A stretch of 61,564 nt of DNA from Candidatus Woesearchaeota archaeon (GCA_014729555.1 WJJT01000036.1:1-61564); one strand, 5' to 3'. Positions 1 through 35,598 are shown, numbered from the stretch's first letter. A program made the numbers and translations. The notes: generated by a model not told the origin, from the letters alone.

Positions 1-395
1 CTTGCTACATCGATGTCGGCTCTTCCTATCCTGGCAGTGCATAAGCTGCCAAGGGTGAGGGGGTTCACCTATCAAAAGGGATCGTTAGCTGGGTTCACAA
101 CGCTGTGAGGCAGTTGGTATAATATCTACTGGAGATGTTAGACGTCTGAGGGGAAGGACGCCATAGTACGAGAGGAACTGGCGTTCGAGGCCACTAGTCT
201 ACCGGTTATCTGACAAGGTATCAAGCCGGGCAGCCACGCCTTGGGGGATAAGTCCTGAAAGCATCTAAGGATGAAGCCCTCCTCGAAAAGAGACATCTTA
301 GAACATAGCTAAAAGAGCTGTTTGATGGGATCGGCGTGTAAGCGCAAAGGTAACGATGCGTTCAGCGTGCGATTTCCAACGTTCATCCCCAGTAT
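1..395 (+). rRNA. rrl: 3'-terminal ~0.4 kb of large-subunit (23S) rRNA (domains V-VI), truncated by the window start; 3' boundary approximate
   Basis: Universally conserved LSU strings read directly: CGATGTCGGCTCTTCC at 11-26 (peptidyl-transferase central loop), sarcin-ricin loop AGTACGAGAGGAAC at 165-178, GAAAGCATCTAAG at 257-269. No long ORF. Confidence 0.9.
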
Positions 396-500
396 TTTTG
401 GTCTAGCACGGTTTCATTTAATTTTTTAAGAAAATGAACGCAAACACATTTAATCCGTTTTTGAAAGCAAAAATCATCGAGTAATTTTCATAGCGTTAGC

Positions 501-23171: not shown

Positions 23172-23537
23172 TTACTCGCTTTTTTCAGAAGGAAAGCCTT
23201 CTGGCCAGTCAAAAACTTCATTGTTTCGCCTAATTTCAAGCTCATCAAGCCAGGCAAGATCCTCTATCGACAGCTTATCTGACCGGTTTCCATCACCAGT
23301 GTCACACCTCAACAGAACTGCAGGCCATTTTCCAGGGTGCTTAAGCCTTCCATTAAGCTCCATCTCTTTCTGGCGAGCAACATATCTTTGCAATGTATCT
23401 TTATCTTCAAACGGATAATTCCATTCTCTAAATTCGTCATTGCTTCCGCCAAAGCCAAAAGGACAGCAAGCATTAAGAGTCAACATTCCTGCATAAAGCG
23501 CGTGCATTGGTCTCATTTCATATCCTAGTATTTTCAT
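23172..23537 (-). CDS. Hypothetical protein, first gene of the candidate system block
   Basis: 121-aa ORF with normal composition, divergent from the FHA-caspase gene. No motif recognised. Confidence 0.55.
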   Translation of the reverse strand: MKILGYEMRPMHALYAGMLTLNACCPFGFGGSNDEFREWNYPFEDKDTLQRYVARQKEMELNGRLKHPGKWPAVLLRCDTGDGNRSDKLSIEDLAWLDELEIRRNNEVFDWPEGFPSEKSE

Positions 23538-23594
23538 TTTGAATTACGCCCCACAATTATATTTACTATCAAACGGTGATTATTTAAAAAGATT

Positions 23595-23636
23595 GCGGAA
23601 GATTTGCGGGTTTTTAGAGGATAAACATATAAAAAC
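23595..23636 (+). promoter_or_regulatory. Promoter of the FHA-caspase gene (TTGCGGGTTTTT...CATATAAAA)
   Basis: TATA ends 23 nt before the ATG at 23657. The upstream CGGGTTTTT element also occurs in the kinase promoter. Confidence 0.55.
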
Positions 23637-23656
23637 GAAAAAACAACATTAAAAGC

Positions 23657-24712
23657 ATGCAAGAGATAGCAAGATGGAAAATACGGCCTTCAGCAGTCGG
23701 AGACATATACGGAAAAAACCTTGAGCTGGAGAGAAGAATAATACCAGTATACAAGCCAATACTAATAGGCACATTAGCAGGGCATTTTCAAGACAATAAA
23801 GGAGAGTGGAGCTATGAGCTTCTTGAGATAGATGAAGAGACAAACAACACACTAATTAAGAGAATGCTTCAAAAAAAGCCTCAGCTGGAGAGTGTTGTGA
23901 ACAATGCAGGGTTTCAGCAGGTTCTCAGGATAAATCCCGCCAGATACAGGCACATATCCAGGTTTCATGCAATACTGGGCACAAAACAGGGTAATTTGTA
24001 CATTGCAGACCTAGAGAGCAAGAATGGCATATACACAGGCCTGCCTGCAGAACAAACACGCTCTGCAATACTGCGAGATGGACAGATAATATACTTAGGC
24101 GGCAAAGCAAAAGACAGTGCGCAGATAAAAGTACATGAAGCAATTAGTAAGGCATATGCACTGCTTGTAGGAGTTGATTACAAAAACCAGAACAGCAAAG
24201 TAATTGAAAAAGAGATTTGGCAAATAGATCAAATGCTCAGAAAACTGGGCGTGCCGTATGAATGCAGAACATTAAAACACAGCCATGCAACAAAAGAAAA
24301 CATCACAAGTTATCTGCAAAGAGCAGAAAGCCTGCCAGAAAACAACCTTTTCTTTTTCTTTTGTGGCGCACATGGAAGCAAAGCAGCAATATCGTCAGCA
24401 GATGGAAAGCTTGCAAAACAAGAGCTGGCCGGGCTGCTGAACAGGATACAAGCAAAAAAAATCATGATAATAGACATATGCCATGCCTGGGGCGGCTGGC
24501 AGGAGCTTGACCTTGACAGCGGGCTGTATTTTTTCTCTTCACAAGAAGAGGAAACAGCAAAATGGGGGGGATTCACACCAGGATTAGCAGAAAGAATTGC
24601 AGAATTACTAAACAAAAAAGAGCCAATTGACATGAAACAAATAAGAATCAATGACCTGGCAAGAGCGCACACACCAGCAAAAAAAGGAAACAAGTCAATA
24701 ATACTGTATTAA
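23657..24712 (+). CDS. FHA domain fused to a caspase-like (peptidase C14 fold) domain
   Basis: FHA: ISRFHAIL and ESKNGIYTG. Caspase-like: ALLVGVDYKN (strand 1), FFFCGAHG (catalytic His) and MIIDICHAWGG (catalytic Cys), in the canonical order and spacing. Confidence 0.7.
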   Translation: MQEIARWKIRPSAVGDIYGKNLELERRIIPVYKPILIGTLAGHFQDNKGEWSYELLEIDEETNNTLIKRMLQKKPQLESVVNNAGFQQVLRINPARYRHISRFHAILGTKQGNLYIADLESKNGIYTGLPAEQTRSAILRDGQIIYLGGKAKDSAQIKVHEAISKAYALLVGVDYKNQNSKVIEKEIWQIDQMLRKLGVPYECRTLKHSHATKENITSYLQRAESLPENNLFFFFCGAHGSKAAISSADGKLAKQELAGLLNRIQAKKIMIIDICHAWGGWQELDLDSGLYFFSSQEEETAKWGGFTPGLAERIAELLNKKEPIDMKQIRINDLARAHTPAKKGNKSIILY

Positions 24713-25986
24713 TCAAAAATCTCGCTTATTTTCAGAAAAACATAATGCAAGGCAAGAGTTGCAAACCCTGCAAAAGAACCGCTTCCGATAACACGCGTAT
24801 ACTCATTAAAATAATCAAGAAAAGAATCAGGCAGAATGCCATACACTGCCCCTCCAAGAAGAGTGCCTGTAACAGCACCAGCCACACCAAATGCATTGGC
24901 CTGATCTATAGTCAGATTAATATCCAGCCTCTTGGATTCCAGGCTTACAGCAGCAACATTAAACAAAGTACCTGAAAAAGAGCTAATGCCTGCAGAGCAA
25001 AGAGTCTCAGTAACACTATAACTAAAACCAGTTGCAGTGAAATACAACATAGCAGCAGCAACAGGAGCATACATCATGCATGCAACAATACATCCAATAC
25101 CCCTGCCTGAAACATCATGCTTATCAACCGCAGGCTCTTGTTTTACAGGAGATGCATAAGGCATGTCCCACTCACCAGGTGTCTGGGCTGCCCTGAGTGC
25201 ATTACGCATCTCTGAAGCGCTCTGAAACCTCTCACCAGGATTCCTGCTCCTGCTCTTCAGAATAATATCATCCAGTCTTTTGTCACCAACAGACTCATAA
25301 GTATATAACGGCTCGTCACCAGTAAGCATCTTATAGAGCACAGTACCAACAGAAAAAACATCAGATCTTGCATCTGCACTTCCCTGCATCTGCTCAGGAG
25401 CCATATAAGCAATAGTGCCGACAACCCTGCTCCTCAAGTCTTCATCAATATCCCCAAGACTGTGCTCTAACTCCTTGCCAGCAAGATTAGGATTAGTGAT
25501 TGTTGCCCAGGAACTCCTTATTTTTCTCTTGTAATCCTTGAACAAGCCAAAATCAGCAAGCTTTGCAAAACCTTTTTTATCAAACAAGATATTCTCAGGC
25601 TTGATATCCCTATGAATAATACCCCTGCTATGCGCGTAATCCAGGCCCTTCAGGACATTAACCGCAATATCAACAGCAGCGCCCTTTTCAAGTGCAGTGA
25701 CATTAACCCTGTCAGCAAGGCTTTTGCTGCACAACTCCATTTCAATATAATTTCTGCCCTCATCTTCACCACAGCTATACACTTCAACAATATTAGGGTG
25801 GCCTTTAAGCCTCATCAAGACCTCTGCCTCTTTATCTGCAGAAGGGTTTGGCTTTGTAAATACCTTGCAGGCAACCTTTTTGCAGGCAGTCATGCTTAAG
25901 GCTTCATAAACATCACTAAAAGCACCCCTTCCAATACGCTCATCAAGCGCGCAGTTTCCTATCATCTTTCCAGACAAGTTTTCCAT
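24709..25986 (-). CDS. Hanks-type Ser/Thr protein kinase with a C-terminal multi-TM domain
   Basis: GRGAFSDV glycine loop, VACKV, HRDIKPENILF, DFG, AYMAPE, then about 130 aa of hydrophobic helices. 4-nt 3' overlap with the FHA-caspase gene. Confidence 0.9.
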   Translation of the reverse strand: MENLSGKMIGNCALDERIGRGAFSDVYEALSMTACKKVACKVFTKPNPSADKEAEVLMRLKGHPNIVEVYSCGEDEGRNYIEMELCSKSLADRVNVTALEKGAAVDIAVNVLKGLDYAHSRGIIHRDIKPENILFDKKGFAKLADFGLFKDYKRKIRSSWATITNPNLAGKELEHSLGDIDEDLRSRVVGTIAYMAPEQMQGSADARSDVFSVGTVLYKMLTGDEPLYTYESVGDKRLDDIILKSRSRNPGERFQSASEMRNALRAAQTPGEWDMPYASPVKQEPAVDKHDVSGRGIGCIVACMMYAPVAAAMLYFTATGFSYSVTETLCSAGISSFSGTLFNVAAVSLESKRLDINLTIDQANAFGVAGAVTGTLLGGAVYGILPDSFLDYFNEYTRVIGSGSFAGFATLALHYVFLKISEIFD

Positions 25987-26004
25987 GAAAAAACGTCTGG
26001 TTTT

Positions 26005-26034
26005 ATTCTTTATATGCCTTTGCCAGAAAAACCC
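26005..26034 (-). promoter_or_regulatory. Promoter of the kinase gene (CGGGTTTTTCTGGCAAAGGCATATAAAGA on the minus strand)
   Basis: Shares 21 identical nt (TCTGGCAAAGGCATATAAAGA) with repeat D at 17437-17457. TATA lies 23 nt before the ATG. Confidence 0.6.
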
Positions 26035-26139
26035 GAAATATTTGCGAAAAAACTGAAAATCTGAAAACTTGCCATCAGAGCGAAATATTTATATAGAAAA
26101 TAAATAGAGTTGAGTATAATATAGAAAAGAGATGAATAA

Positions 26140-28467
26140 ATGGCAATACTTGATAATTTAATGAGTATTTATCAGTCTTATCCCTGGGTATTTGACGGAA
26201 TAATCATATGTGTCCTGCTGGGCGTGTTGTTCAGAATTCTTTTTGAAAAAGGAAAGATAGGAGATGAAAAACAAGCCAAAAAACTAGGCGGAATATTCGG
26301 ATTCTTCCTCGGCATAGCAATGATCGGCTACATGCAGTACAGAGGCTGGACACTGTTCATTGACGGCGGGCCATGGGTTTTTTCAATCGTGATAATATCA
26401 TTAGTTCTTGTTTTATGGGCAGTCATGGATGGCCTGCTAAAGCACGAACACAGGTCAGTAACACTGCCATTAGCATTTGTGGTTGCAACAATGCTAATCT
26501 ATGCATTCCTGAACTTTGTCCCATCATACATGGCAGGAGTCGGTAACTTGTTTGGTGATTCTGTCTGGATATGGCATCTCATCATGTGGTGTTTAATGAT
26601 ATTCATACTTTTCTGGGCGTTACTTGGCATGATGGCAGGAGGAATGCCAAAAGCAGGAGAGGGATTTTGGGGTGCAGTAGGAGGAGCAATAAAAGCACCA
26701 TTCAAGGCAGCAGGCTGGGGGCTTGAAGGGGCAGGCGACATCTATGACTGGTGGAAAGACAAGAGAGCAGACAGAAAAAGAAGAGCCGCAGCAAGAGAAA
26801 AGCCAGCAGACACACCAGAAGAAACTGAAAAAATAGATACAGACACAGACACAGACCTTGCAGATGCAAGCGAAGAAGCAGAAAAAACAGACAAGGCGCT
26901 TGATGCTGCAAAAGCAATAAGCTCAGCACTTGCAAAAGTGCTCAATGAAATAAGAGCATCTGCAAACGGAGCAAGGCAGTTTCCTGCAGAATTCAAGCCA
27001 GAAAACTACAGTAACATAAGCAAATGGCTGAAGGCAAAACAAGGTGAATTAAATTCAGAAAAAAAGAGCTTTGATGGAATAAAACTTGTTGAAAAGCTAA
27101 TCAATGCACAAGAAGCACTGCAGAAAGCAAAAGCAGATGTTAATGCAGAACTGCAGAAAATAGGCACATATACAAAAATAAATGAAGCAATCACAAAAAT
27201 AGGCCAGATAAGTGATGACAATCCAGAAAAGGCGCGGCTGCTTGCAGACGCACAGGCAGAACAAAAGCATCTTGCACAAATAGTCTCAGGACTGCAGGCA
27301 GTAATAAAACCATTTGAAGACGCAATAAATGAAATCCTAAAAAAAGAAGAACTTGCCCAGACAAAATCAAAAATAGAGGAATTAGACAACCACATAACAG
27401 CACTGCAGGCACTATTGCCAGCAGTAATCAAAGACCTTGCAGAACTGGGAAAAGAGATTCCAGAAGAGGCAAAAAAACCACTTCAAGACAAGATCAAGCC
27501 AAACTGCGACAAAATAATCACTTCAGCAACAAACGCAATAGAAACACTCGGAACACTAAACAAAGTCATTATAGACGGGCGGCTAAAACAAGGAGTGATT
27601 GCAGCAGAAGCTGCAATAACAAGATTTATTGAAAGCAAAAAAATATACATAAAAGACTTTGTGCAATTACAGGCAGACGTTGACGCACTGCTTGCAAGAA
27701 TCAATCAAATCCTGTCAAAACAAATGTCACCAAAAGAAAAGACAACAATGGTCACAGCACTTGATAACATAAAAAACACAATAGCAACACAAAAAAACGA
27801 ACTTCTCACACTGATAACAGAAGCAGAAAAATTCATCAAAGCCATCAAAAAAGCATGGGAGATACAGACAGAGACAAAAAGAAAGATGGAGACAGATATA
27901 GCAATAACAGAAAAAAAGACAACAGAAGAACTCATAAAACAACAAGAAGAAGAGGCCAGAGCACAGATAACAGCAGCAATAGAAGCAGCAAAAAAAGAGC
28001 AGACAGACACAGTAAAAATCCTTACTGCAGGAGCAGCAACAGTCAAAAAAGCAAAATCAGAGCTTGTGACAGCAAGAAACATGCTCTCACAGCTGGTGCA
28101 GAAAACAGCAGGAAAAAGAAGGAAAAATGCAGAAATACTCCTAAAAAACCTGAATTACATGCTTGAAGAAGAAGAGGAAATACAAAAAGGCCTGAACTTT
28201 CTTCGAGACTATGAAAAATATATAATAGACACAGTGCTGGCAAGAACAGAACTGCCAAAAACAAAAAGAAAAATAGGCTCAGTAATATACGAATTAAGAA
28301 ACAAAATAATCAAGCCGCTTAAAGAAATCGTGCAGATGCTTGACGAAGAACTCATATTCCTGACAAAAGAAGAAAAAGAATTAACTGCAGAGCCTATCTC
28401 GCCGCCACCACCATCAGGAGCAGCCACAAGACCAATAGAAATGCCTGTGCCTCCACCGCCAGCCTAA
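26140..28467 (+). CDS. 775-aa protein: N-terminal ~190-aa multi-TM domain, ~500-aa coiled coil, proline-rich C-terminus (PPPPSG...PPPPA)
   Basis: Hydrophobic helices in residues 1-190, then a long heptad-like A/E/K/L/Q-rich sequence. No catalytic motif. Confidence 0.8.
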   Translation: MAILDNLMSIYQSYPWVFDGIIICVLLGVLFRILFEKGKIGDEKQAKKLGGIFGFFLGIAMIGYMQYRGWTLFIDGGPWVFSIVIISLVLVLWAVMDGLLKHEHRSVTLPLAFVVATMLIYAFLNFVPSYMAGVGNLFGDSVWIWHLIMWCLMIFILFWALLGMMAGGMPKAGEGFWGAVGGAIKAPFKAAGWGLEGAGDIYDWWKDKRADRKRRAAAREKPADTPEETEKIDTDTDTDLADASEEAEKTDKALDAAKAISSALAKVLNEIRASANGARQFPAEFKPENYSNISKWLKAKQGELNSEKKSFDGIKLVEKLINAQEALQKAKADVNAELQKIGTYTKINEAITKIGQISDDNPEKARLLADAQAEQKHLAQIVSGLQAVIKPFEDAINEILKKEELAQTKSKIEELDNHITALQALLPAVIKDLAELGKEIPEEAKKPLQDKIKPNCDKIITSATNAIETLGTLNKVIIDGRLKQGVIAAEAAITRFIESKKIYIKDFVQLQADVDALLARINQILSKQMSPKEKTTMVTALDNIKNTIATQKNELLTLITEAEKFIKAIKKAWEIQTETKRKMETDIAITEKKTTEELIKQQEEEARAQITAAIEAAKKEQTDTVKILTAGAATVKKAKSELVTARNMLSQLVQKTAGKRRKNAEILLKNLNYMLEEEEEIQKGLNFLRDYEKYIIDTVLARTELPKTKRKIGSVIYELRNKIIKPLKEIVQMLDEELIFLTKEEKELTAEPISPPPPSGAATRPIEMPVPPPPA

Positions 28468-28469
28468 TT

Positions 28470-30239
28470 CTAAGCAGCAGAAAGCTTTTTATTGCAGTCA
28501 TCCAGGTTTTGTTTTGCTTGTGCAAGCCTTGTCACAGCAACCTTGTTCTCAGGATTCTGAACAAGCTCCTGCTCAACAGCAGCAACTGCCTTTTGATAAT
28601 GCACTCTGGCAGACTTGTAATCCTGACTGTGCTCATAGAAAATATTACCAAGATTATTATGCGCAACACACCTGATTAAATTATCCTTAGGTTCTGTAGC
28701 AAGGAATTTAGCATAAACCTTCTGCTTAAGCTCATACGGGGCATTATTCTCCTTAAGAGCATGCATCCAGCCCCAGATCTCTTTCTGGTGCTCTGCCTTG
28801 ACCTCATCAAGCATCTGGCTGTATCTGTCATCCTCATCCTCAAGAGTAGGCAATGAAGCCTCCTCTGGCTCATGCCAAGGAGCATTAACTTTCTTTCTGT
28901 CCTGACCTACACGACTGCCGGACTTTGCCTCTTCAATCAAGTCTGAAACAAGAACAGCAAGTTTTTTGCCTCTTGAACGCAATTCCTGCAGCTGCTCATT
29001 ATCATTAAATTCGGCATTCTGCGCAAAAGCACTCTCTATAAAAGCATACCACTCTGCAACACTATCGCCAAGCTCAGCAAACCTGGCACTGTATTGCGCG
29101 AATAAAGCATCATATTCCTCTCTCATCTGAGCACTGTCTTTTTTTGCTTTGTCTCTTTCCTGCTCAAGACCTGCGCTCTTCTCAGAAAGCGTCACAATAT
29201 TTTCATCTGCTTCAAGAAGCTGTCCCTGCAATTTATCAATCTCCTGCATGTACTCATGCTCTGCATACATAAGCTTTTCCTGCAAGTCCTTGATTTCAGC
29301 AGCACTTAGCTTTTGATCATGCTCATTAGCAAGAATCCTTTCCTGTAATTCCTGCATTTCAGCCTGCTTGTACTCTAATGTTTGAGCAAGATCTAACTGC
29401 AAGTTTTTTTTGTCCTCTTCAAAAACAGCTTTACCTGCTTCAAGACCAGAAACTCTTTGTTTTAAAGTATCATTTGCAAGTGTAACACTTCTACAGGCAT
29501 GGCCAGCCTCTGTCAGTTCTGTCTCAAGTTCTGCTTCTCTTGCCTCAATTACTGATTTTTCAGCTGCCTGGGCTGTTTTATCAGCCTCAAGCTTAGCAAC
29601 GTCTCTTGCAAGAGCTTCTTTTTGACCTGCAACTTTCTCTTTATCTGCCTGGACTTCTGCTTTTGCAGCCTTTGCATCAAGCACTTCATCCTCAAGCATG
29701 TTTATCTTCTTTTTACAGGCATGCCTGACCTGAGTCTCAACGTGTTCACCTATTGTAAAAATATTATTAAGCGCGTCAATAAAAGCAGTTTCATCATATT
29801 TTCTAAGCCTGGGCTCATTATTCAAAAGATACATTGCAATATTTTCTGCAGCATTCTTCAAGAAAGGCTGAACATTGTGCGGATTTATGTTGCTTGGATC
29901 AATTCCGGCAAGATCCTCTGCTTCTACCAAAATTCTCGGAATACAGGCCCTGGCAGCCTTTAAAATGCTTTCAGAGGCACTTGCCTCGCCTGTTCCATCT
30001 TCTTTGTCTTTTTTCTCAACAAGACGGAAAACAACCCTTTCAACAAGGCCTCTCTCATCTGGCGTGACACTGTAAGAAGGCTTTTTCTGCACACCTTTCA
30101 ACTCTTCAGGTGTAAAATACTCTTTGATTTCACTTCTAGGAATATAATGCGCTGCAAGATCAGCAACAGCACTATGCAAATCTTGAAATGTTCTTAATGG
30201 ATTTTCTGATTTTTGTGATTTTTTATTTTTTTTTGCCAT
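28470..30239 (-). CDS. 589-aa acidic coiled-coil protein with a C-terminal TPR-like hairpin (paralog set member 4)
   Basis: Basic N-terminal peptide MAKKNKKSQK, central coiled coil, C-terminal AHNNLGNIFYEHSQDYKSARVHYQKAV. Its stop is 2 nt from the stop of the convergent 775-aa gene. Confidence 0.8.
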   Translation of the reverse strand: MAKKNKKSQKSENPLRTFQDLHSAVADLAAHYIPRSEIKEYFTPEELKGVQKKPSYSVTPDERGLVERVVFRLVEKKDKEDGTGEASASESILKAARACIPRILVEAEDLAGIDPSNINPHNVQPFLKNAAENIAMYLLNNEPRLRKYDETAFIDALNNIFTIGEHVETQVRHACKKKINMLEDEVLDAKAAKAEVQADKEKVAGQKEALARDVAKLEADKTAQAAEKSVIEAREAELETELTEAGHACRSVTLANDTLKQRVSGLEAGKAVFEEDKKNLQLDLAQTLEYKQAEMQELQERILANEHDQKLSAAEIKDLQEKLMYAEHEYMQEIDKLQGQLLEADENIVTLSEKSAGLEQERDKAKKDSAQMREEYDALFAQYSARFAELGDSVAEWYAFIESAFAQNAEFNDNEQLQELRSRGKKLAVLVSDLIEEAKSGSRVGQDRKKVNAPWHEPEEASLPTLEDEDDRYSQMLDEVKAEHQKEIWGWMHALKENNAPYELKQKVYAKFLATEPKDNLIRCVAHNNLGNIFYEHSQDYKSARVHYQKAVAAVEQELVQNPENKVAVTRLAQAKQNLDDCNKKLSAA

Positions 30240-30240
30240 A

Positions 30241-31284
30241 TTACTCTGCCTCTGCTGTGACTGTGTTTTCTTTTAATTGATTTTCATAAAACTCAACATT
30301 ATGCTCAAGCATGCCCCACTTATGCAGTGATTCTGCACAGGGGTTTTTAATTAGTTCAGTCTTGCTCACTTGTCTGGCTCTTCTTGCATAATTGAATGCT
30401 TTCTCACACTCGCCCCTGCCTGCGCTTGTCTCTGCCAGTTCACTCAAAACATAAACCAAAACCTCCTTGTCTTTTGACTTACAGCCCTTAGCACCTGCAT
30501 AGGCTTCAAAAACATAATTCCTGAACTCTTCTGCCTCCTGCTTTTCAGCATCAGGGGCAGTTGCATAAGCAGTATCAACCTCTTCAAGAGCCTTTTCCCA
30601 AAAACACCTGTTCTTTTCATCAATAACAATTTTTTCACCAGATGCAAGCTGCAGGATTACAGAATATTTCTCAGTAACACTAACTCCTTCATATGGCTGT
30701 ACATTGCAATCAGAAGCTTCTGACGTACTGTCAAGCACAGACTCAAGCTGCTCTTCAGAATCAGGAGCCTCTACATCTTTAAGCTGTTCTGTTTTTGTGC
30801 CAACAATAACCGTATCATCAGTATCATCAAGGTCCTCTATAACCCGCGTTTCCAGCGCAGCAACATACTCTCTTTCTTGTTTTGAAGGCCCTGCTGGAAT
30901 CGCAGTCTTTGTATCATGAATATCTGTTTCAGCAGGAGGAAAATCCTGTTCAGGCGCAGATTCCTCTTGATGAGTTTTCTGCAATCTACCAGGCTGATCA
31001 CTAGTGCCTGCAAATTCCTGCACTTTATCAAACCCCACCAGATTAGGATCTGTGCCACTACTGACTTTTTCTGCCATACAATCAGCCGTATCTCTTTCCA
31101 GTTCGTCATCCTCAAATGCAGCAGGAGCTGGTGCACATAATTCAGGAACATGGGTTATATTTCTAGGATCAACTTCAGGAGCTGGCTCTGCCTTTTCCCT
31201 GGCTTTATCAGCTGCTCTTTTCTTTAATGTTCCTGTCCAAGCAGATGGCCTGCTCACCTTTTTTGGCCTTTTTCTCTGAGTCAT
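30241..31284 (-). CDS. Acidic protein with a C-terminal TPR-like hairpin (paralog set member 3)
   Basis: MTQRKRPKK basic N-terminus, D/E/T-rich middle, C-terminal VLVYVLSELAETSAGRGECEKAFNYARRAR. Confidence 0.75.
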   Translation of the reverse strand: MTQRKRPKKVSRPSAWTGTLKKRAADKAREKAEPAPEVDPRNITHVPELCAPAPAAFEDDELERDTADCMAEKVSSGTDPNLVGFDKVQEFAGTSDQPGRLQKTHQEESAPEQDFPPAETDIHDTKTAIPAGPSKQEREYVAALETRVIEDLDDTDDTVIVGTKTEQLKDVEAPDSEEQLESVLDSTSEASDCNVQPYEGVSVTEKYSVILQLASGEKIVIDEKNRCFWEKALEEVDTAYATAPDAEKQEAEEFRNYVFEAYAGAKGCKSKDKEVLVYVLSELAETSAGRGECEKAFNYARRARQVSKTELIKNPCAESLHKWGMLEHNVEFYENQLKENTVTAEAE

Positions 31285-31376
31285 TTTAGTCTTTACCCAC
31301 AAACTATGGTTTTTTACCACTATTTGGTAGTATTACTCATATATAAAGCTTTTGGTTTTGAGGGGTTTGTTGGGGT

Positions 31377-32648
31377 TTATTCCTTTATTTCAGCCCTGTA
31401 AAACGCAAGATTCTCTTCAGCCTCTTTCAAGTTATCAGATAATTTCTCCTTGCACAAGTTCCTTGCCCTTGCTGCATAAGACTCTGCCTCTGCTTTTTTG
31501 CCGTCATCATAAGCTGAACCAGCCAGTTCACTCAAAACAAAATACATAACTTCAGGATCTCTTGAGGCTGCAATGCTATACAATTCAAAAGCACACCTTC
31601 TTACTTCTGAAACATACTGCGCCATAAAAGCAGAATCATTAATCTCATCAGCAGCAGGAACATCAGCAACTGCATCAGACAACTCATTCAATAAATTCTC
31701 TGCTTTTTCATCAAGGCCTGCAGGAGCTTCTTTTGCCTGCCTTGCCTCTGCAACAGCATTTTCTGCAGACTGCTTGTAACCAGCAACTTGTGCCTTGTAA
31801 GCCTTAACAACAGACATAATTTTATCCAGAGTTTTAATGTAACTTAACACTTCAAGAGCATGCTCAACACTTGGAGTTTCTGGCTCCTGCTCTTCTTGCT
31901 TTTTCCTGAAAATAGCAGTAACTGCAGAATCTTTAGCACTCTTTACCTTTCCAACAATCCAGTCAATTGTGCTGTCTTTTGCATCAGGCTCAGCAGCTTC
32001 AGGCTCTTGCTCTAAAACCTCTGCTGCAACTGCATCAAGCTTTTTACAGAGTGTATCAAATGCATTCTTAAGACCATCATATGGCTTTGCAGCATCTTTC
32101 AGGCTGGAAATCTTATTCCTTAGCCCGGTGATATTAGCCTGGTAAGTTTTAAACAGCCCTAAAAGCTCTGCAAACTCTCGGCCCTCTGCTGCACCTGAAG
32201 GAAAAACTTCAGCCAGCAGAGCTCTAATATAATCATCACGTGCATTGACCTGATCTTCAAGTTCCTGATATTCCTCTGTATCTTGTATATCTAAAACAGA
32301 CATTTCTTCGGGCTGCTCAGGCACTTTGACAGCAAGCTGATCCTGCATACCAGTAATCTTTGTTTGCATTTGCTTAAATTCTTCAGCAAGCTGTGTTTTC
32401 TCAGCTTTATTTAAGCCATATTTATGAACAATTGTTATTGTCTTTTTATCAGGATCTGTTAGGAGTGTAACCATCTCAACCCTAAGCTCATTATCCTCTG
32501 TCCAGAAATCAGGTGTATTCACAACATCAGATTTATTTAACATCTCATAGCCTTTATCTGAAAATTGCTTGGCAAAATCATCAAAATTGGTTTTCCTGCC
32601 TATGTGAGCTCCTAGTTCCCCGTCTTCCCAGGACTTATGTTCATCCAT
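31377..32648 (-). CDS. Acidic coiled-coil protein with a C-terminal TPR-like hairpin (paralog set member 2)
   Basis: C-terminal VMYFVLSELAGSAYDDGKKAEAESYAARAR aligns with member 3. Start ATGGATGA overlaps the upstream stop. Confidence 0.75.
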   Translation of the reverse strand: MDEHKSWEDGELGAHIGRKTNFDDFAKQFSDKGYEMLNKSDVVNTPDFWTEDNELRVEMVTLLTDPDKKTITIVHKYGLNKAEKTQLAEEFKQMQTKITGMQDQLAVKVPEQPEEMSVLDIQDTEEYQELEDQVNARDDYIRALLAEVFPSGAAEGREFAELLGLFKTYQANITGLRNKISSLKDAAKPYDGLKNAFDTLCKKLDAVAAEVLEQEPEAAEPDAKDSTIDWIVGKVKSAKDSAVTAIFRKKQEEQEPETPSVEHALEVLSYIKTLDKIMSVVKAYKAQVAGYKQSAENAVAEARQAKEAPAGLDEKAENLLNELSDAVADVPAADEINDSAFMAQYVSEVRRCAFELYSIAASRDPEVMYFVLSELAGSAYDDGKKAEAESYAARARNLCKEKLSDNLKEAEENLAFYRAEIKE

Positions 32649-33837
32649 CTTTAGCCTCTGCAAAATAATCCTTGAATTTCTGGATCTCTGCCTTTATTGA
32701 TTCTTTGCTTTCTTCTGGTGCAAGATCAAGAGCTGTCTGGCATAATGATTCTGCCTTCTTCAACTGCTCTTTTGCTAATTTTTCTTCGCCTTCTTGTGAA
32801 TAGGAATCACTAAGAATCCCATGCAGATAAGCCTGCTGAACAAGCTCAACTGGGTCTGCGGGAGAAAGTGCAAGACTATATCCTGCTTGATCTGCCTCTT
32901 CTTTCAGGCTGGTTATTACCTCAACAAGGTATGGAACTGGCTCTTTTCTTAACCTGGTTTTATCAAGTTCCTTTCCTATTAAATACTGGGGCATATTGCT
33001 AAGCGCAGGTGCATGCTTTTGATTTTCATGGCCATAATCTGCAATCCTGTTTTTTTGCTGTAGTAATTTATCAAGCGCATATGCAGCAACTTTGCCTTCT
33101 GAATCAGATGCATTTGTTACCAAACTAGACAAAAATTCTTTTTCATCTGGAAAATGCTCAAGAAGCCCTTGGTACAGCCTCTGTATTAGTTTCCGCTGCG
33201 TAATTGCTGCCAGTATCGTGTCTGAAAATATATCTTTGTAAGATTCTTTTTCTTCTTCTGGCTTTTCCCCTTTATTATCTGCATCCTTCAGGCTATCTGC
33301 ATAATCAATCCTGCATCTTGCATCTGCAACTGTATCAGGAACTATCTTTGCAAGGCAGTCCATCAGTTTGTTATACTTATCATTTGCAGTATCTTCTTTA
33401 CTATGTGCTTTCATAAGAGCTCCTTGAACACGGGCCTCAAAGTGTTTTGCATTCTCTATGGTCACCCGCAGAACTTCCTTAAACATAAAATCCTCTCTTG
33501 ATTCTGAAGGACTGCCATCTGCACGCGCTAAGATTTCAGCAGCCTCAGTCTCACCTGCATAGTCTTCTAAAATTCTTTTATTGCTTTTGCATAAATCTAC
33601 GACAGAAAGAATAAATGTCTGCAATTCTTCAAAAGCCTCAAACTGCCGCACCCTGCTCTGCGCTGCCTCTGCATCTTGTTTGTACCGTTGCTTTTTAAGA
33701 TTAGAGTCTCTTATTTTCTTTTCTAGATCAGCAATGATCTCAGCATCAGGTCTACGAAACATACTGATTGCTCTTGCAAGAATACTAAGTCTAGGTTTTT
33801 TCTGTCTATTTTCATCAGGCATTTTTTTTTCAGCCAT
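32641..33837 (-). CDS. Acidic helical protein with a C-terminal TPR-like hairpin (paralog set member 1)
   Basis: Basic N-terminus ...RQKKPRLS, C-terminal AYLHGILSDSYSQEGEEKLAKEQLKKAESL. Confidence 0.75.
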   Translation of the reverse strand: MAEKKMPDENRQKKPRLSILARAISMFRRPDAEIIADLEKKIRDSNLKKQRYKQDAEAAQSRVRQFEAFEELQTFILSVVDLCKSNKRILEDYAGETEAAEILARADGSPSESREDFMFKEVLRVTIENAKHFEARVQGALMKAHSKEDTANDKYNKLMDCLAKIVPDTVADARCRIDYADSLKDADNKGEKPEEEKESYKDIFSDTILAAITQRKLIQRLYQGLLEHFPDEKEFLSSLVTNASDSEGKVAAYALDKLLQQKNRIADYGHENQKHAPALSNMPQYLIGKELDKTRLRKEPVPYLVEVITSLKEEADQAGYSLALSPADPVELVQQAYLHGILSDSYSQEGEEKLAKEQLKKAESLCQTALDLAPEESKESIKAEIQKFKDYFAEAKDG

Positions 33838-33960
33838 ATCACACCAACCAAGTACTACTTAATAATTACGAATAAGTAAAATAGCTAAAATAGCGACTGT
33901 ATAAAAAGATTATGGTTTAAGAACAATATAAATACCGAAAAATAAAAGAAATAAAATGGC

Positions 33961-34152
33961 TTACTTAACAAGCCACATATGCAAACCAATCAAAGCAATG
34001 ACAATAGGCCATATTGTCAAGCCGCCTGTGCTCAGGTATCCAAGGTCAGCAGCCATGAACCAAAGGCCAACCAATAGAACAAGAATTCCAAACCAGCCAG
34101 GGCACTTTCCTGGTGAGCAGATCATTCCCATGCTTTTTTTCTTAGCCATCAA
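33961..34152 (-). CDS. Small two-TM membrane protein
   Basis: 63-aa ORF with a basic N-terminus and two hydrophobic helices. Confidence 0.4.
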   Translation of the reverse strand: MMAKKKSMGMICSPGKCPGWFGILVLLVGLWFMAADLGYLSTGGLTIWPIVIALIGLHMWLVK

Positions 34153-34316
34153 ATCACCTCAAATTAATTTAATTAAACATTAAATCCACAAACGCAATAT
34201 ATAAATTTTTCGCCAAAAACCTTGTTTTCTTGAATTTAGAACTTGGACAAGCTCTAATTTTCGCTTGACTTAAGAAGAAAAGTTTAAATACTATGCTTTT
34301 CCTTGTCCTGAGTACA

Positions 34317-35070: not shown

Positions 35071-35598
35071 ATGAACAAAACAATAGCTTCTTTATTCGGG
35101 AAATTATCAGATATTATGCCAAGATATTTCCAAGCAGAAGAGGTGGCGCACTTTAAAAATGTGGAAGAATTGAATAATTTTAGCCGTCTATTCCAACAGT
35201 ATCTAGAACTAGGAGGCTGGATGAATGATTCAACACAGCGAGAACTGGACAAAATATTAACTAAAGACGAAAAATTGCTTAAAAAAGTAAAGAAAAACGC
35301 AGCATTAATACGCTCAGAATTTGAAAAACTAAAAAAACAAGGAAAAATAAGCCAAGAATTCTTAAAAACAAGTCCGCCAGCCTACCACAACCCGCAGCTT
35401 TTTGAGGGTGATAAAATTGAAAAAATAGTAGACACAGCATTAGAGGCAATGAGCAACCTGTCTATGCTTTATAATCAATACGGGCGCAAAAACATGGCTA
35501 AAGTTGTAAAAGATTCTAAATCATATCTCAGACAAATACAAAACCAGCTTGTTATATTGCGCGGAATATTACTAGAAGTTCTAGAGAAAAAGAAATAA
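35071..35598 (+). CDS. Hypothetical helical protein
   Basis: 175-aa ORF 10 nt after the preceding gene. Confidence 0.5.
   Translation: MNKTIASLFGKLSDIMPRYFQAEEVAHFKNVEELNNFSRLFQQYLELGGWMNDSTQRELDKILTKDEKLLKKVKKNAALIRSEFEKLKKQGKISQEFLKTSPPAYHNPQLFEGDKIEKIVDTALEAMSNLSMLYNQYGRKNMAKVVKDSKSYLRQIQNQLVILRGILLEVLEKKK

Follow-up and report, generated by a model that had tools for sequence, protein, structure and literature searches.

The window analysed here is a contig of 61,564 nucleotides (nt) from a Candidatus Woesearchaeota archaeon, and all feature positions are numbered on it. Its minus strand carries four adjacent genes, called A to D, that converge on a fifth, gene E. A sequence-only reading had described A–D as four tandem paralogous acidic proteins sharing only a C-terminal hairpin of the tetratricopeptide repeat (TPR) type. 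The four open reading frames (ORFs) lie where that reading had placed them, and the N- and C-terminal peptides it quoted are all present. The proteins are indeed acidic (isoelectric points of 4.6–5.3, net charges of -12 to -32); they lack a signal peptide or transmembrane segment and look cytoplasmic. Protein B corresponds to NCBI entry GF343_03440 and protein E to GF343_03425. The genes and the C-terminal tails of A–D are:

26140–28467, plus strand: gene E, 775 amino acids (aa), convergent with D
28470–30239, minus strand: gene D, 589 aa, with a conserved N-terminal domain of about 200 aa, a length-variable coiled coil and a TPR end
30241–31284, minus strand: gene C, 347 aa, with a basic N-terminus, a long acidic middle of low hydrophobicity and a C-terminal domain homologous to that of B
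31377–32648, minus strand: gene B, 423 aa, with an N-terminal domain that contains an invariant FW-acidic motif (W49), and a coiled-coil middle
32641–33837, minus strand: gene A, 398 aa, basic and amphipathic at the N-terminus, helical and variable in the middle, and ending in a TPR-like module
28473–28832, minus strand: D tail, TPR
30244–30603, minus strand: C tail, TPR domain
31380–31739, minus strand: B tail, five-helix TPR-like domain
32644–33003, minus strand: A tail, last 120 aa, with a TPR hairpin at residues ~336–365 and a capping helix

The C-terminus of B is a TPR domain of about 110 aa that is common to C. In D, the C-terminal region of about 200 aa is conserved, with the TPR at its end and an invariant tryptophan, W455, within an acidic linker.

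The nature of the tails was apparent from profile comparisons. Family profiles were built from 4–8 orthologues per family and aligned by hhalign to a canonical three-unit TPR_12 profile, which itself was built from matches of the mixed-profile search described below. Scores were 37.6 for the B tail (P 5.7e-6), 34.3 for C (P 2.6e-5), 33.4 for D (P 3.6e-5) and 25.2 for A (P 1.2e-3). The controls were 38 windows, each 120 columns wide, cut from the B, D and E alignments outside the tails and matching the tails in composition and helical bias; against the same TPR_12 profile these gave a mean score of 8.6 (standard deviation 1.5) and a maximum of 12.5. Profile searches of the PDB pointed the same way. 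The best match was the consensus TPR 7obi for D (E 3.8e-6) and the designed TPR 5fzr for both B (E 2.3e-3) and C (E 2.9e-3), each at the hairpin, with 7obi also matching C at about 3e-3.

A mixed tail profile, made from an alignment of 23 tails, was used in an exhaustive hidden Markov model (HMM) search of 1.84 billion representatives and gave 2223 matches at E<=1e-3. Most of these are long proteins that were matched 6–18 times, at profile positions ~60–97. All six matches that were sampled proved to be TPR_12/TPR_10 repeat proteins, several of them fused to NB-ARC or TIR domains. The single full-length matches at a C-terminus were additional members of the B-, C- and D-type families. None of the window proteins reached the Pfam gathering score for TPR models. 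The D tail matched TPR_12 at E 7.8e-7 with 29.6 bits, against a cut-off of 30.1; B scored 16.1 against 27.5 for TPR_10, A scored 14.1 against 25.7 for TPR_8, and C gave no match. For A, each of the four orthologues has sub-threshold matches to TPR_2, TPR_8 and TPR_1 at one and the same position.

An AF2 model of the B tail, computed with the B/C alignment, had a predicted local distance difference test (pLDDT) score of 82 and five helices (17–35, 46–66, 72–88, 92–109 and 111–129). This amounts to about two repeats and a cap rather than a superhelical array of three or more repeats. Foldseek comparison of this model with the PDB returned mainly TPR domains, i.e., SycD/PcrH, the idealised TPR 1na0, the kinesin light chains KLC1/2, LGN, BtubC and the PSB domain of prolyl 4-hydroxylase. 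For the A tail, a single-sequence AF2 model contained helices at 61–77, 84–104 and 107–125, with a pLDDT of only 54, and was left out of the fold search.

From these profiles and models we conclude that each tail is a mini-TPR of the kinesin-light-chain subtype, with about 1.5–2 repeats. It consists of a preceding helix, one full hairpin, an 'LGxxHPdT'-like linker and the A-helix of the next repeat; the tail profile matches span one hairpin and this next A-helix. The resemblance between the final helices of the four proteins ([EK]-x-[NE]-[LVI]-x-x-[YFC]) is then simply that of the 'NLAxxY' helix in the following repeat. The helix layout is common to all four tails, and each lies at the extreme C-terminus. 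The proposed common hairpin is thus confirmed by the PDB profiles, the TPR_12 scores relative to controls, the mixed-profile search and the B-tail model with its Foldseek matches. The suggestion of a docking-type element also fares well, as the tails are genuine TPR-type modules, a classic docking fold.

The claim of four paralogues was borne out for one pair. Within the window, BLASTP supported only B and C (35% identity over 118 aa, E 9e-10). Their profiles aligned in hhalign with a probability of 97%, E 1e-11 and a score of 69, and the two family HMMs match reciprocally at 1e-11 to 3e-9. We take B and C to be duplicates of each other; the homology extends over some 110 aa and is not confined to the hairpin, as had been proposed. 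No family HMM cross-detected A or D with the others (E>0.3), and the remaining hhalign pairs were weak (A–D P 0.0023, C–D P 0.0035, A–C P 0.007, A–B P 0.019, B–D P 0.042). Four of these five weak alignments are in the register proposed from sequence, and B–D is shifted one helix downstream. The tail-against-tail scores were reached by only 0–2 of the 38 controls (4 of 38 for D against B). Yet the A, D and B/C tails score only 17–24 against each other, which is lower than against the generic TPR_12 profile (25–38). Four-fold paralogy is plausible because position, layout and neighbourhood are the same, and is proven for B and C only. No fifth tail-bearing ORF was found by the tail HMMs among the ORFs of the window and eight loci.

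Relatives of the cluster are rare. Searches among 5.8 billion proteins returned only four for B and only eight for E. Related contigs, collected by context look-ups and by contig scans, are called L001–L011, and the window sequence W; L003, L006 and L008 duplicate L002, L004 and L007, respectively. They represent eight further distinct lineages, all Woesearchaeota-like. One of them, L005 (CAZXEZ010000013.1), is labelled as an 'uncultured Methanosarcinales' metagenome-assembled genome; the N-terminus of its E is 81% identical to that of the window, it also has genes for a kinase and an FHA-caspase protein, arranged differently, and it is probably a mis-binned Woesearchaeota contig.

Wherever the contig is long enough, the order is fixed as PAC2, a small ORF (small62), A, B, C, D and convergent E. 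Gene E is followed by D in 8/8 lineages, and contigs reaching far enough contain C (6/6) and both B and A (4/4). Comparison of paralogue number in these genomes always gave exactly four genes, A–D, and the tight linkage of the four that had been proposed is confirmed by conserved order and junctions. The strict co-occurring partner of A–D is the convergent gene E, not the kinase/FHA-caspase pair that lies on the other side of it. Only a small number of related Woesearchaeota have the cluster, and a literature search found no description of it. A viral or mobile origin is ruled out by zero PHROG matches and by the fixed position between housekeeping genes in all genomes.

Within this conserved frame the genes diverge fast. 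Compared with L001, flanking genes are 85–97% identical, with a nonsynonymous divergence (dN) of 0.02–0.09 and a ratio to synonymous divergence (dN/dS) of 0.05–0.20. For A, D, C and B, dN was 0.74, 0.46, 0.44 and 0.38, respectively, with dN/dS values of 0.39–0.47; E had a dN of 0.11 and a dN/dS of 0.29. A–D thus evolve 5–10 times faster than the flanks, in agreement with the rapid divergence that had been noted for the family and for its middles. The dS within the cluster is mostly above that of the flanks. A–D are real genes under purifying selection, as shown by a dN/dS of 0.39–0.47 and by ORFs and junctions kept in four genomes; an interpretation as pseudogenes or artefacts is ruled out by dN/dS near 0.4 and conserved reading frames.

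The divergence is distributed in blocks. In blastn comparisons the flanks were about 80–85% identical, and similarity was zero in A, the N-terminal half of B and the middles of C and D. Gene A has no nucleotide similarity to L001 over its whole length; its orthologues in L001, L002 and L004 have 544–610 aa and can be aligned only over the last ~105–180 aa. No shorter alleles of A, B and C are known than those of the window, owing to indels in their variable regions. Segment identity matrices were incongruent. The N-terminal domain of D pairs W with L004 (81%), the C-terminal region pairs W with L001 and L011 (80–84%), and the tail pairs W with L011 (85%), L001 with L002 (81%) and L004 with L009 (66%). 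In sliding windows, L001 and L002 shared 80–100% identity in the membrane anchor of E, 18–40% in its coil and 100% in the last E window, and 84–93% over the last ~90 aa of D, with 14–57% in the rest of D. Abrupt steps of this sort reflect a mosaic produced by recombination among alleles that had diverged deeply. Apart from the end domains and E's membrane anchor, all of the cluster evolves 5–10 times faster than the flanking genes and is shuffled by recombination.

The conserved N-terminal domain of E has about five hydrophobic segments, with a basic stretch after the last, which suggests that the remainder of the protein is cytoplasmic. The anchor is followed by a long hypervariable coiled coil and a Pro-rich C-terminal peptide (PIEMPVPPPPA). 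Across eight lineages the anchor is 60–88% conserved and the coil occurs as deeply diverged allelic types with 25–45% identity. The last ~12 residues (PIEMPVPPPPA, PIEQPIPPPPA or APRIPP...) change type without regard to the sequence before them; recombination breakpoints lie just upstream of these codons, and the breakpoints in E differ from those in D. The peptide types co-group with the D tail types as {W, L11, L10}, {L1, L2}, {L4, L9} and {L7}. The stop codons of E and D are 2 nt apart (28465–28472), and including stops the two ORFs overlap by 4 nt in L004 (12331–12334) and L007 (12304–12307), so there is no room for separate terminators. No match of E was found in Pfam, the PDB profile search, PADLOC or PHROG.

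Among the N-termini, those of A and C are basic and conserved. The A orthologues begin with MVxKFTKKLxRxxxRR (RLSILARAISMFRR in the window), and residues 1–30 (33748–33837, minus strand) form a conserved basic amphipathic stretch (FTKKLxRxLRR) resembling membrane-targeting helices; the C orthologues have a conserved KKRAAxKARxxAEPAPEVDPxNIT. The two show no evident similarity, as judged by eye only, and the poly-K of D occurs only in the window and L004. Basic N-terminal peptides are present as described, but no sharing among three proteins is apparent. Two invariant tryptophans stand in an acidic context: W49 at residues ~46–55 of B (~32484–32513, minus strand), in an FWDDDN-like motif, and W455 at residues ~452–461 of D (~28857–28886, minus strand), in a PW[KH]ExE-like motif. 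The D middle matched coiled-coil proteins in the PDB profile search (M protein, Rad50, BST2). Pfam, NCBIfam, PADLOC and PHROGs gave no family for A–E, p121 (a small ORF near the FHA-caspase gene) or small62 beyond weak TPR and coiled-coil noise (HsbA, CHZ, JetC, LmuB, SMC). A precomputed Pfam listing of HmpF (PF28019) on the L002 D protein was treated likewise.

The junctions within the cluster had been taken to indicate one operon. The B start overlaps the A stop by 8 nt (ATGGATGA), the C/D junction reads TAA-T-ATG, with D starting 1 nt past the C stop, and both junctions are kept in four genomes. The spacer between B and C measures 92 nt and contains a promoter-like element, and a second box lies upstream of A:

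31340–31353, minus strand: box AAAGCTTTATATA, resembling an archaeal B recognition element with TATA box (BRE/TATA), in the B–C spacer, identical in the window, L001, L002 and L004
33900–33907, minus strand: TATA-like box TTTTTATA, some 65 nt before the start codon of A

The AAAGCTTTATATA box is likely the promoter of the C–D pair. The box upstream of A reads TTTTTAAA in L001, L002 and L004 and may act as the A promoter. The promoter-bearing spacers are conserved, and the 150 nt upstream of A are identical between L001 and L002. Because of the conserved BRE/TATA box between B and C and the box upstream of A, we read the region as two translationally coupled bicistronic units, A–B and C–D. The overlapping and abutting codons stand, and a single simple operon does not.

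Four further genes border the cluster:

23172–23537, minus strand: p121, an orphan ORF of 121 aa adjoining the FHA-caspase gene
23657–24712, plus strand: FHA and caspase-like (C14) protein, Pfam FHA 3.4e-7, with Peptidase_C14 annotated on orthologues
24709–25986, minus strand: Hanks-type Ser/Thr kinase, Pfam Pkinase 5e-46, with a hydrophobic C-terminal region
33961–34149, minus strand: small62, an ORF of 62 aa containing two hydrophobic stretches (MAKKKSMGMICSPGKCPGWFGILVLLVGLWFMAADLGYLSTGGLTIWPIVIALIGLHMWLVK), located 123 nt upstream of A

The small62 protein is 87–92% identical in L001, L002 and L004 and has a weak Pfam match of the LiaF-TM/LiaI type (E 5.7e-4, under the cut-off). At the other end, p121 diverges fast (33–48% identity, dN 0.44 and dN/dS 0.47 against L001) while its other neighbour, mem141, is 86–89% identical; the variable island therefore spans ~23172 to 33837. 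The kinase (dN 0.31, dN/dS 0.34) and FHA-caspase genes (dN 0.19, dN/dS 0.25) lie within it, between p121 and E (23595–26078). PADLOC matched the FHA-caspase protein to a caspase at 1e-6, and its His (AHG) and Cys (DIC) dyad, read from the sequences, is conserved; the PADLOC matches of the kinase are to generic kinase models. The pair is present in the window, L001, L002, L004, L005, L009 and L010, adjoining E in 7/9 distinct lineages, and is absent between p121 and E in L007/L008 (L007 9494–10001) and L011 (986–1582), where E, D and C persist. Even a close relative can lack it, as L011 shows: across E and the 3' part of D its nt identity to the window is 88.6%. The pair looks like a separable accessory module, a facultative neighbour.

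Elsewhere in the window, an ORF of 175 aa after PAC2 (35071–35598, plus strand) has no tblastn counterpart in L001, L002 or L004; the genes on either side of it are conserved, and the site is another variable spot. An archaeal 23S rRNA 3' end occupies positions 1–398 (plus strand; Rfam RF02540, 372.7 bits). ARAGORN found no tRNA genes in the 61.5 kb, and nothing relevant was found in a tandem-repeat search of 26000–34300.

What these proteins do together can be approached from the tails. We tentatively favour a reading, possible though short of probable, in which the tails serve to attach four variable arms to one shared, membrane-anchored complex with E. The TPR tails would be docking modules for four interchangeable, fast-evolving coiled-coil or disordered arms, tethered to one membrane assembly that is shared with E. 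They may bind short linear motifs in the cluster's own products. Candidate ligands are the C-terminal PxPPPPA peptide of E, the W-acidic motifs of B (W49, FWDDDN) and D (W455, PWxExE) and the EPAPEVDP motif of C; alternatively, the tails could pack against each other. The kinase and FHA-caspase would be optional regulators and not core parts. This reading is supported by the dominance of TPR peptide-binding domains among the Foldseek matches of the B-tail model, and by the co-occurrence of E, D, C, B and A, the rarity of the family, the co-segregation of E peptide and D tail types, and the invariant tryptophans.

Several observations weigh against docking of this kind. A peptide groove usually needs three or more TPR repeats, and the two found here are fewer. 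The Foldseek statistics for the B tail are weak (E 0.2–0.7, probability 0.85–0.97, template modelling (TM) scores 0.4–0.5). For A the evidence is weakest, with a P value of 1.2e-3 against TPR_12, a pLDDT of 54 and nothing found in the PDB profile search. A and D could also have acquired their TPR tails independently. The co-segregation of E peptides with D tails is confounded by adjacency, as the convergent 3' ends are 2 nt apart. In addition, a crude heptad score for coiled coil, an insensitive measure, was little above that of shuffled sequences.

The strongest competitor, unlikely but with a real share of the probability, is that A–D are four unrelated or loosely related coiled-coil or disordered proteins with generic TPR caps and no common partner, their rapid divergence reflecting low constraint. 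The low scores of the A, D and B/C tails against each other (17–24, compared with 25–38 for generic TPR_12) fit it, as does the failure of the family HMMs to cross-detect A and D. TPRs are also among the commonest repeats, as the 2223 matches of the mixed profile illustrate. It accounts less well for the likeness of the four tails in extreme C-terminal placement, helix layout and register, with scores above nearly all control windows. Gene order, coupled junctions and co-occurrence with E are strictly conserved, and blocks with 80–100% identity beside blocks with 15–40% are unlike simple drift.

The mosaicism leads to another explanation, which we hold to be improbable overall and behind the generic-cap alternative: that p121 to A together form a polymorphic module, serving either intracellular immunity or a symbiont–host interface. 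The arms would then be sensors, decoys or delivered effectors under diversifying selection, and the kinase and FHA-caspase would form a signalling and executioner part. Consistent with this are a dN 5–10 times that of the flanks, the mostly elevated dS, the sharp mosaic blocks and incongruent segment groupings in D and E, and nucleotide sequences that have lost all similarity in A, in the N-terminal half of B and in the C/D middles, between flanks and promoters that are ~80–100% identical. The presence/absence polymorphism of the kinase/FHA-caspase pair and the conserved caspase dyad with its PADLOC match (1e-6) fit as well, and a small helical domain on adjacent gene products recalls effector-associated domains (Kaur et al., 2020; PMC7159879). 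However, dN/dS is well under 1 overall, the comparisons are between species-level relatives (80–85% nt identity in the flanks) and not strains, and fast neutral drift of coiled-coil or disordered sequence under low constraint accounts for some of the pattern. The cluster lacks an NTPase core, a nuclease, a toxin and mobile-element marks, the locus keeps a fixed position among housekeeping genes, and A–E have no PADLOC, NCBIfam or PHROG family match, with only marginal PADLOC coiled-coil matches to JetC (2e-4) and LmuB (6e-3). A role in conflict or at an interface is still a serious possibility in view of the rapid, mosaic evolution and of a kinase/caspase pair that is optional.

Lower again in our estimation, and doubtful, is the proposal that A–D are phosphorylated by the adjacent kinase, recognised by the FHA domain and cleaved by the fused caspase, which develops the earlier suggestion that they are targets or scaffolds of the pair. 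The pair adjoins E in 7/9 lineages, both of its genes evolve faster than the flanks (dN 0.19–0.31), and C has two conserved Thr residues in disordered or terminal motifs, T44 (NITxxPE) and T341 (ENTV). The link is weak, since L011 and L007/L008 have lost the pair cleanly but kept E, D and C. Conserved Thr residues are few, with none in A, and a count of T-x-x-[DILV], a context preferred by FHA domains, showed no enrichment over shuffles in A–E (P 0.34–0.85). A role of A–D as substrates of the kinase and FHA-caspase is neither supported nor excluded.

A last combination, the most speculative and least probable of those considered, joins docking with conflict: in a polymorphic, recombination-shuffled adaptor of a DPANN archaeon, mini-TPR tails of the kinesin-light-chain type would read W-acidic motifs or Pro-rich C-terminal peptides and hang four interchangeable arms that diversify against virus or host on a membrane anchor, with the kinase/FHA-caspase as an optional switch. 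If true, this would place eukaryote-like adaptor logic based on short linear motifs at an archaeal conflict or symbiosis interface. DPANN archaea have many orphan genes, and their dealings with hosts and viruses are poorly understood. Here, a small gene set restricted to one clade brings together an interaction module that can be recognised, the TPR tails, and candidate ligands from neighbouring genes, a combination that yields a concrete, testable binding hypothesis for otherwise 'hypothetical' proteins. Its signature, in which dN is fast, recombination mosaic, promoters conserved and the kinase/caspase pair optional, is of a kind usual at conflict or interface loci, within the limits that the fold is common and the family tiny.

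Four known systems offer points of comparison. Effector-associated domains are small helical domains that recur on adjacent gene products and have been proposed to couple them by homotypic contacts (PMC7159879), and the conflict systems that contain them include caspase, FHA, kinase, TPR and coiled-coil parts (Kaur, Burroughs, Iyer and Aravind, 2020; PMC7159879). Unlike these, the present cluster has no vWA-MoxR, STAND or GTPase core, its tail is a TPR and not a described effector-associated domain, and a demonstrably identical domain is found on B and C only. Streptococcal M proteins resemble the cluster in their conserved ends, hypervariable, length-polymorphic coiled-coil middle and modular recombination, and were matched by the D middle; however, this similarity is coiled-coil bias only (E 2e-3), and A–D lack a signal peptide and wall anchor.

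The closest parallels in fold are with other TPR proteins. SycD/PcrH, class II chaperones of type III secretion systems, and the PSB domain of collagen prolyl 4-hydroxylase were the top Foldseek matches of the B tail and have a similar size (100–145 aa, 5–7 helices), although E values of 0.2–0.7, TM scores of 0.36–0.45 and identities of 13–19% limit the analogy to fold and size. The PSB domain consists of two TPRs and a capping helix and binds Pro-rich peptides; this layout and ligand type are those proposed here for the PxPPPPA tail of E. Kinesin light chain has an N-terminal heptad region and a cargo domain of six TPRs that binds W-acidic motifs. The present tails differ from it in having ~1.5–2 repeats instead of six and no motor partner in the cluster, and their binding of W-acidic motifs is conjectural. 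The tails of A–D match the same 42-residue TPR_12/TPR_10 subtype, Foldseek matched KLC1/2 and BtubC, a coiled-coil region precedes the C-terminal TPR in both cases, and the tryptophan motifs in B (W49) and D (W455) resemble, within the cluster itself, the W-acidic cargo motifs that kinesin light chain binds through its TPRs.

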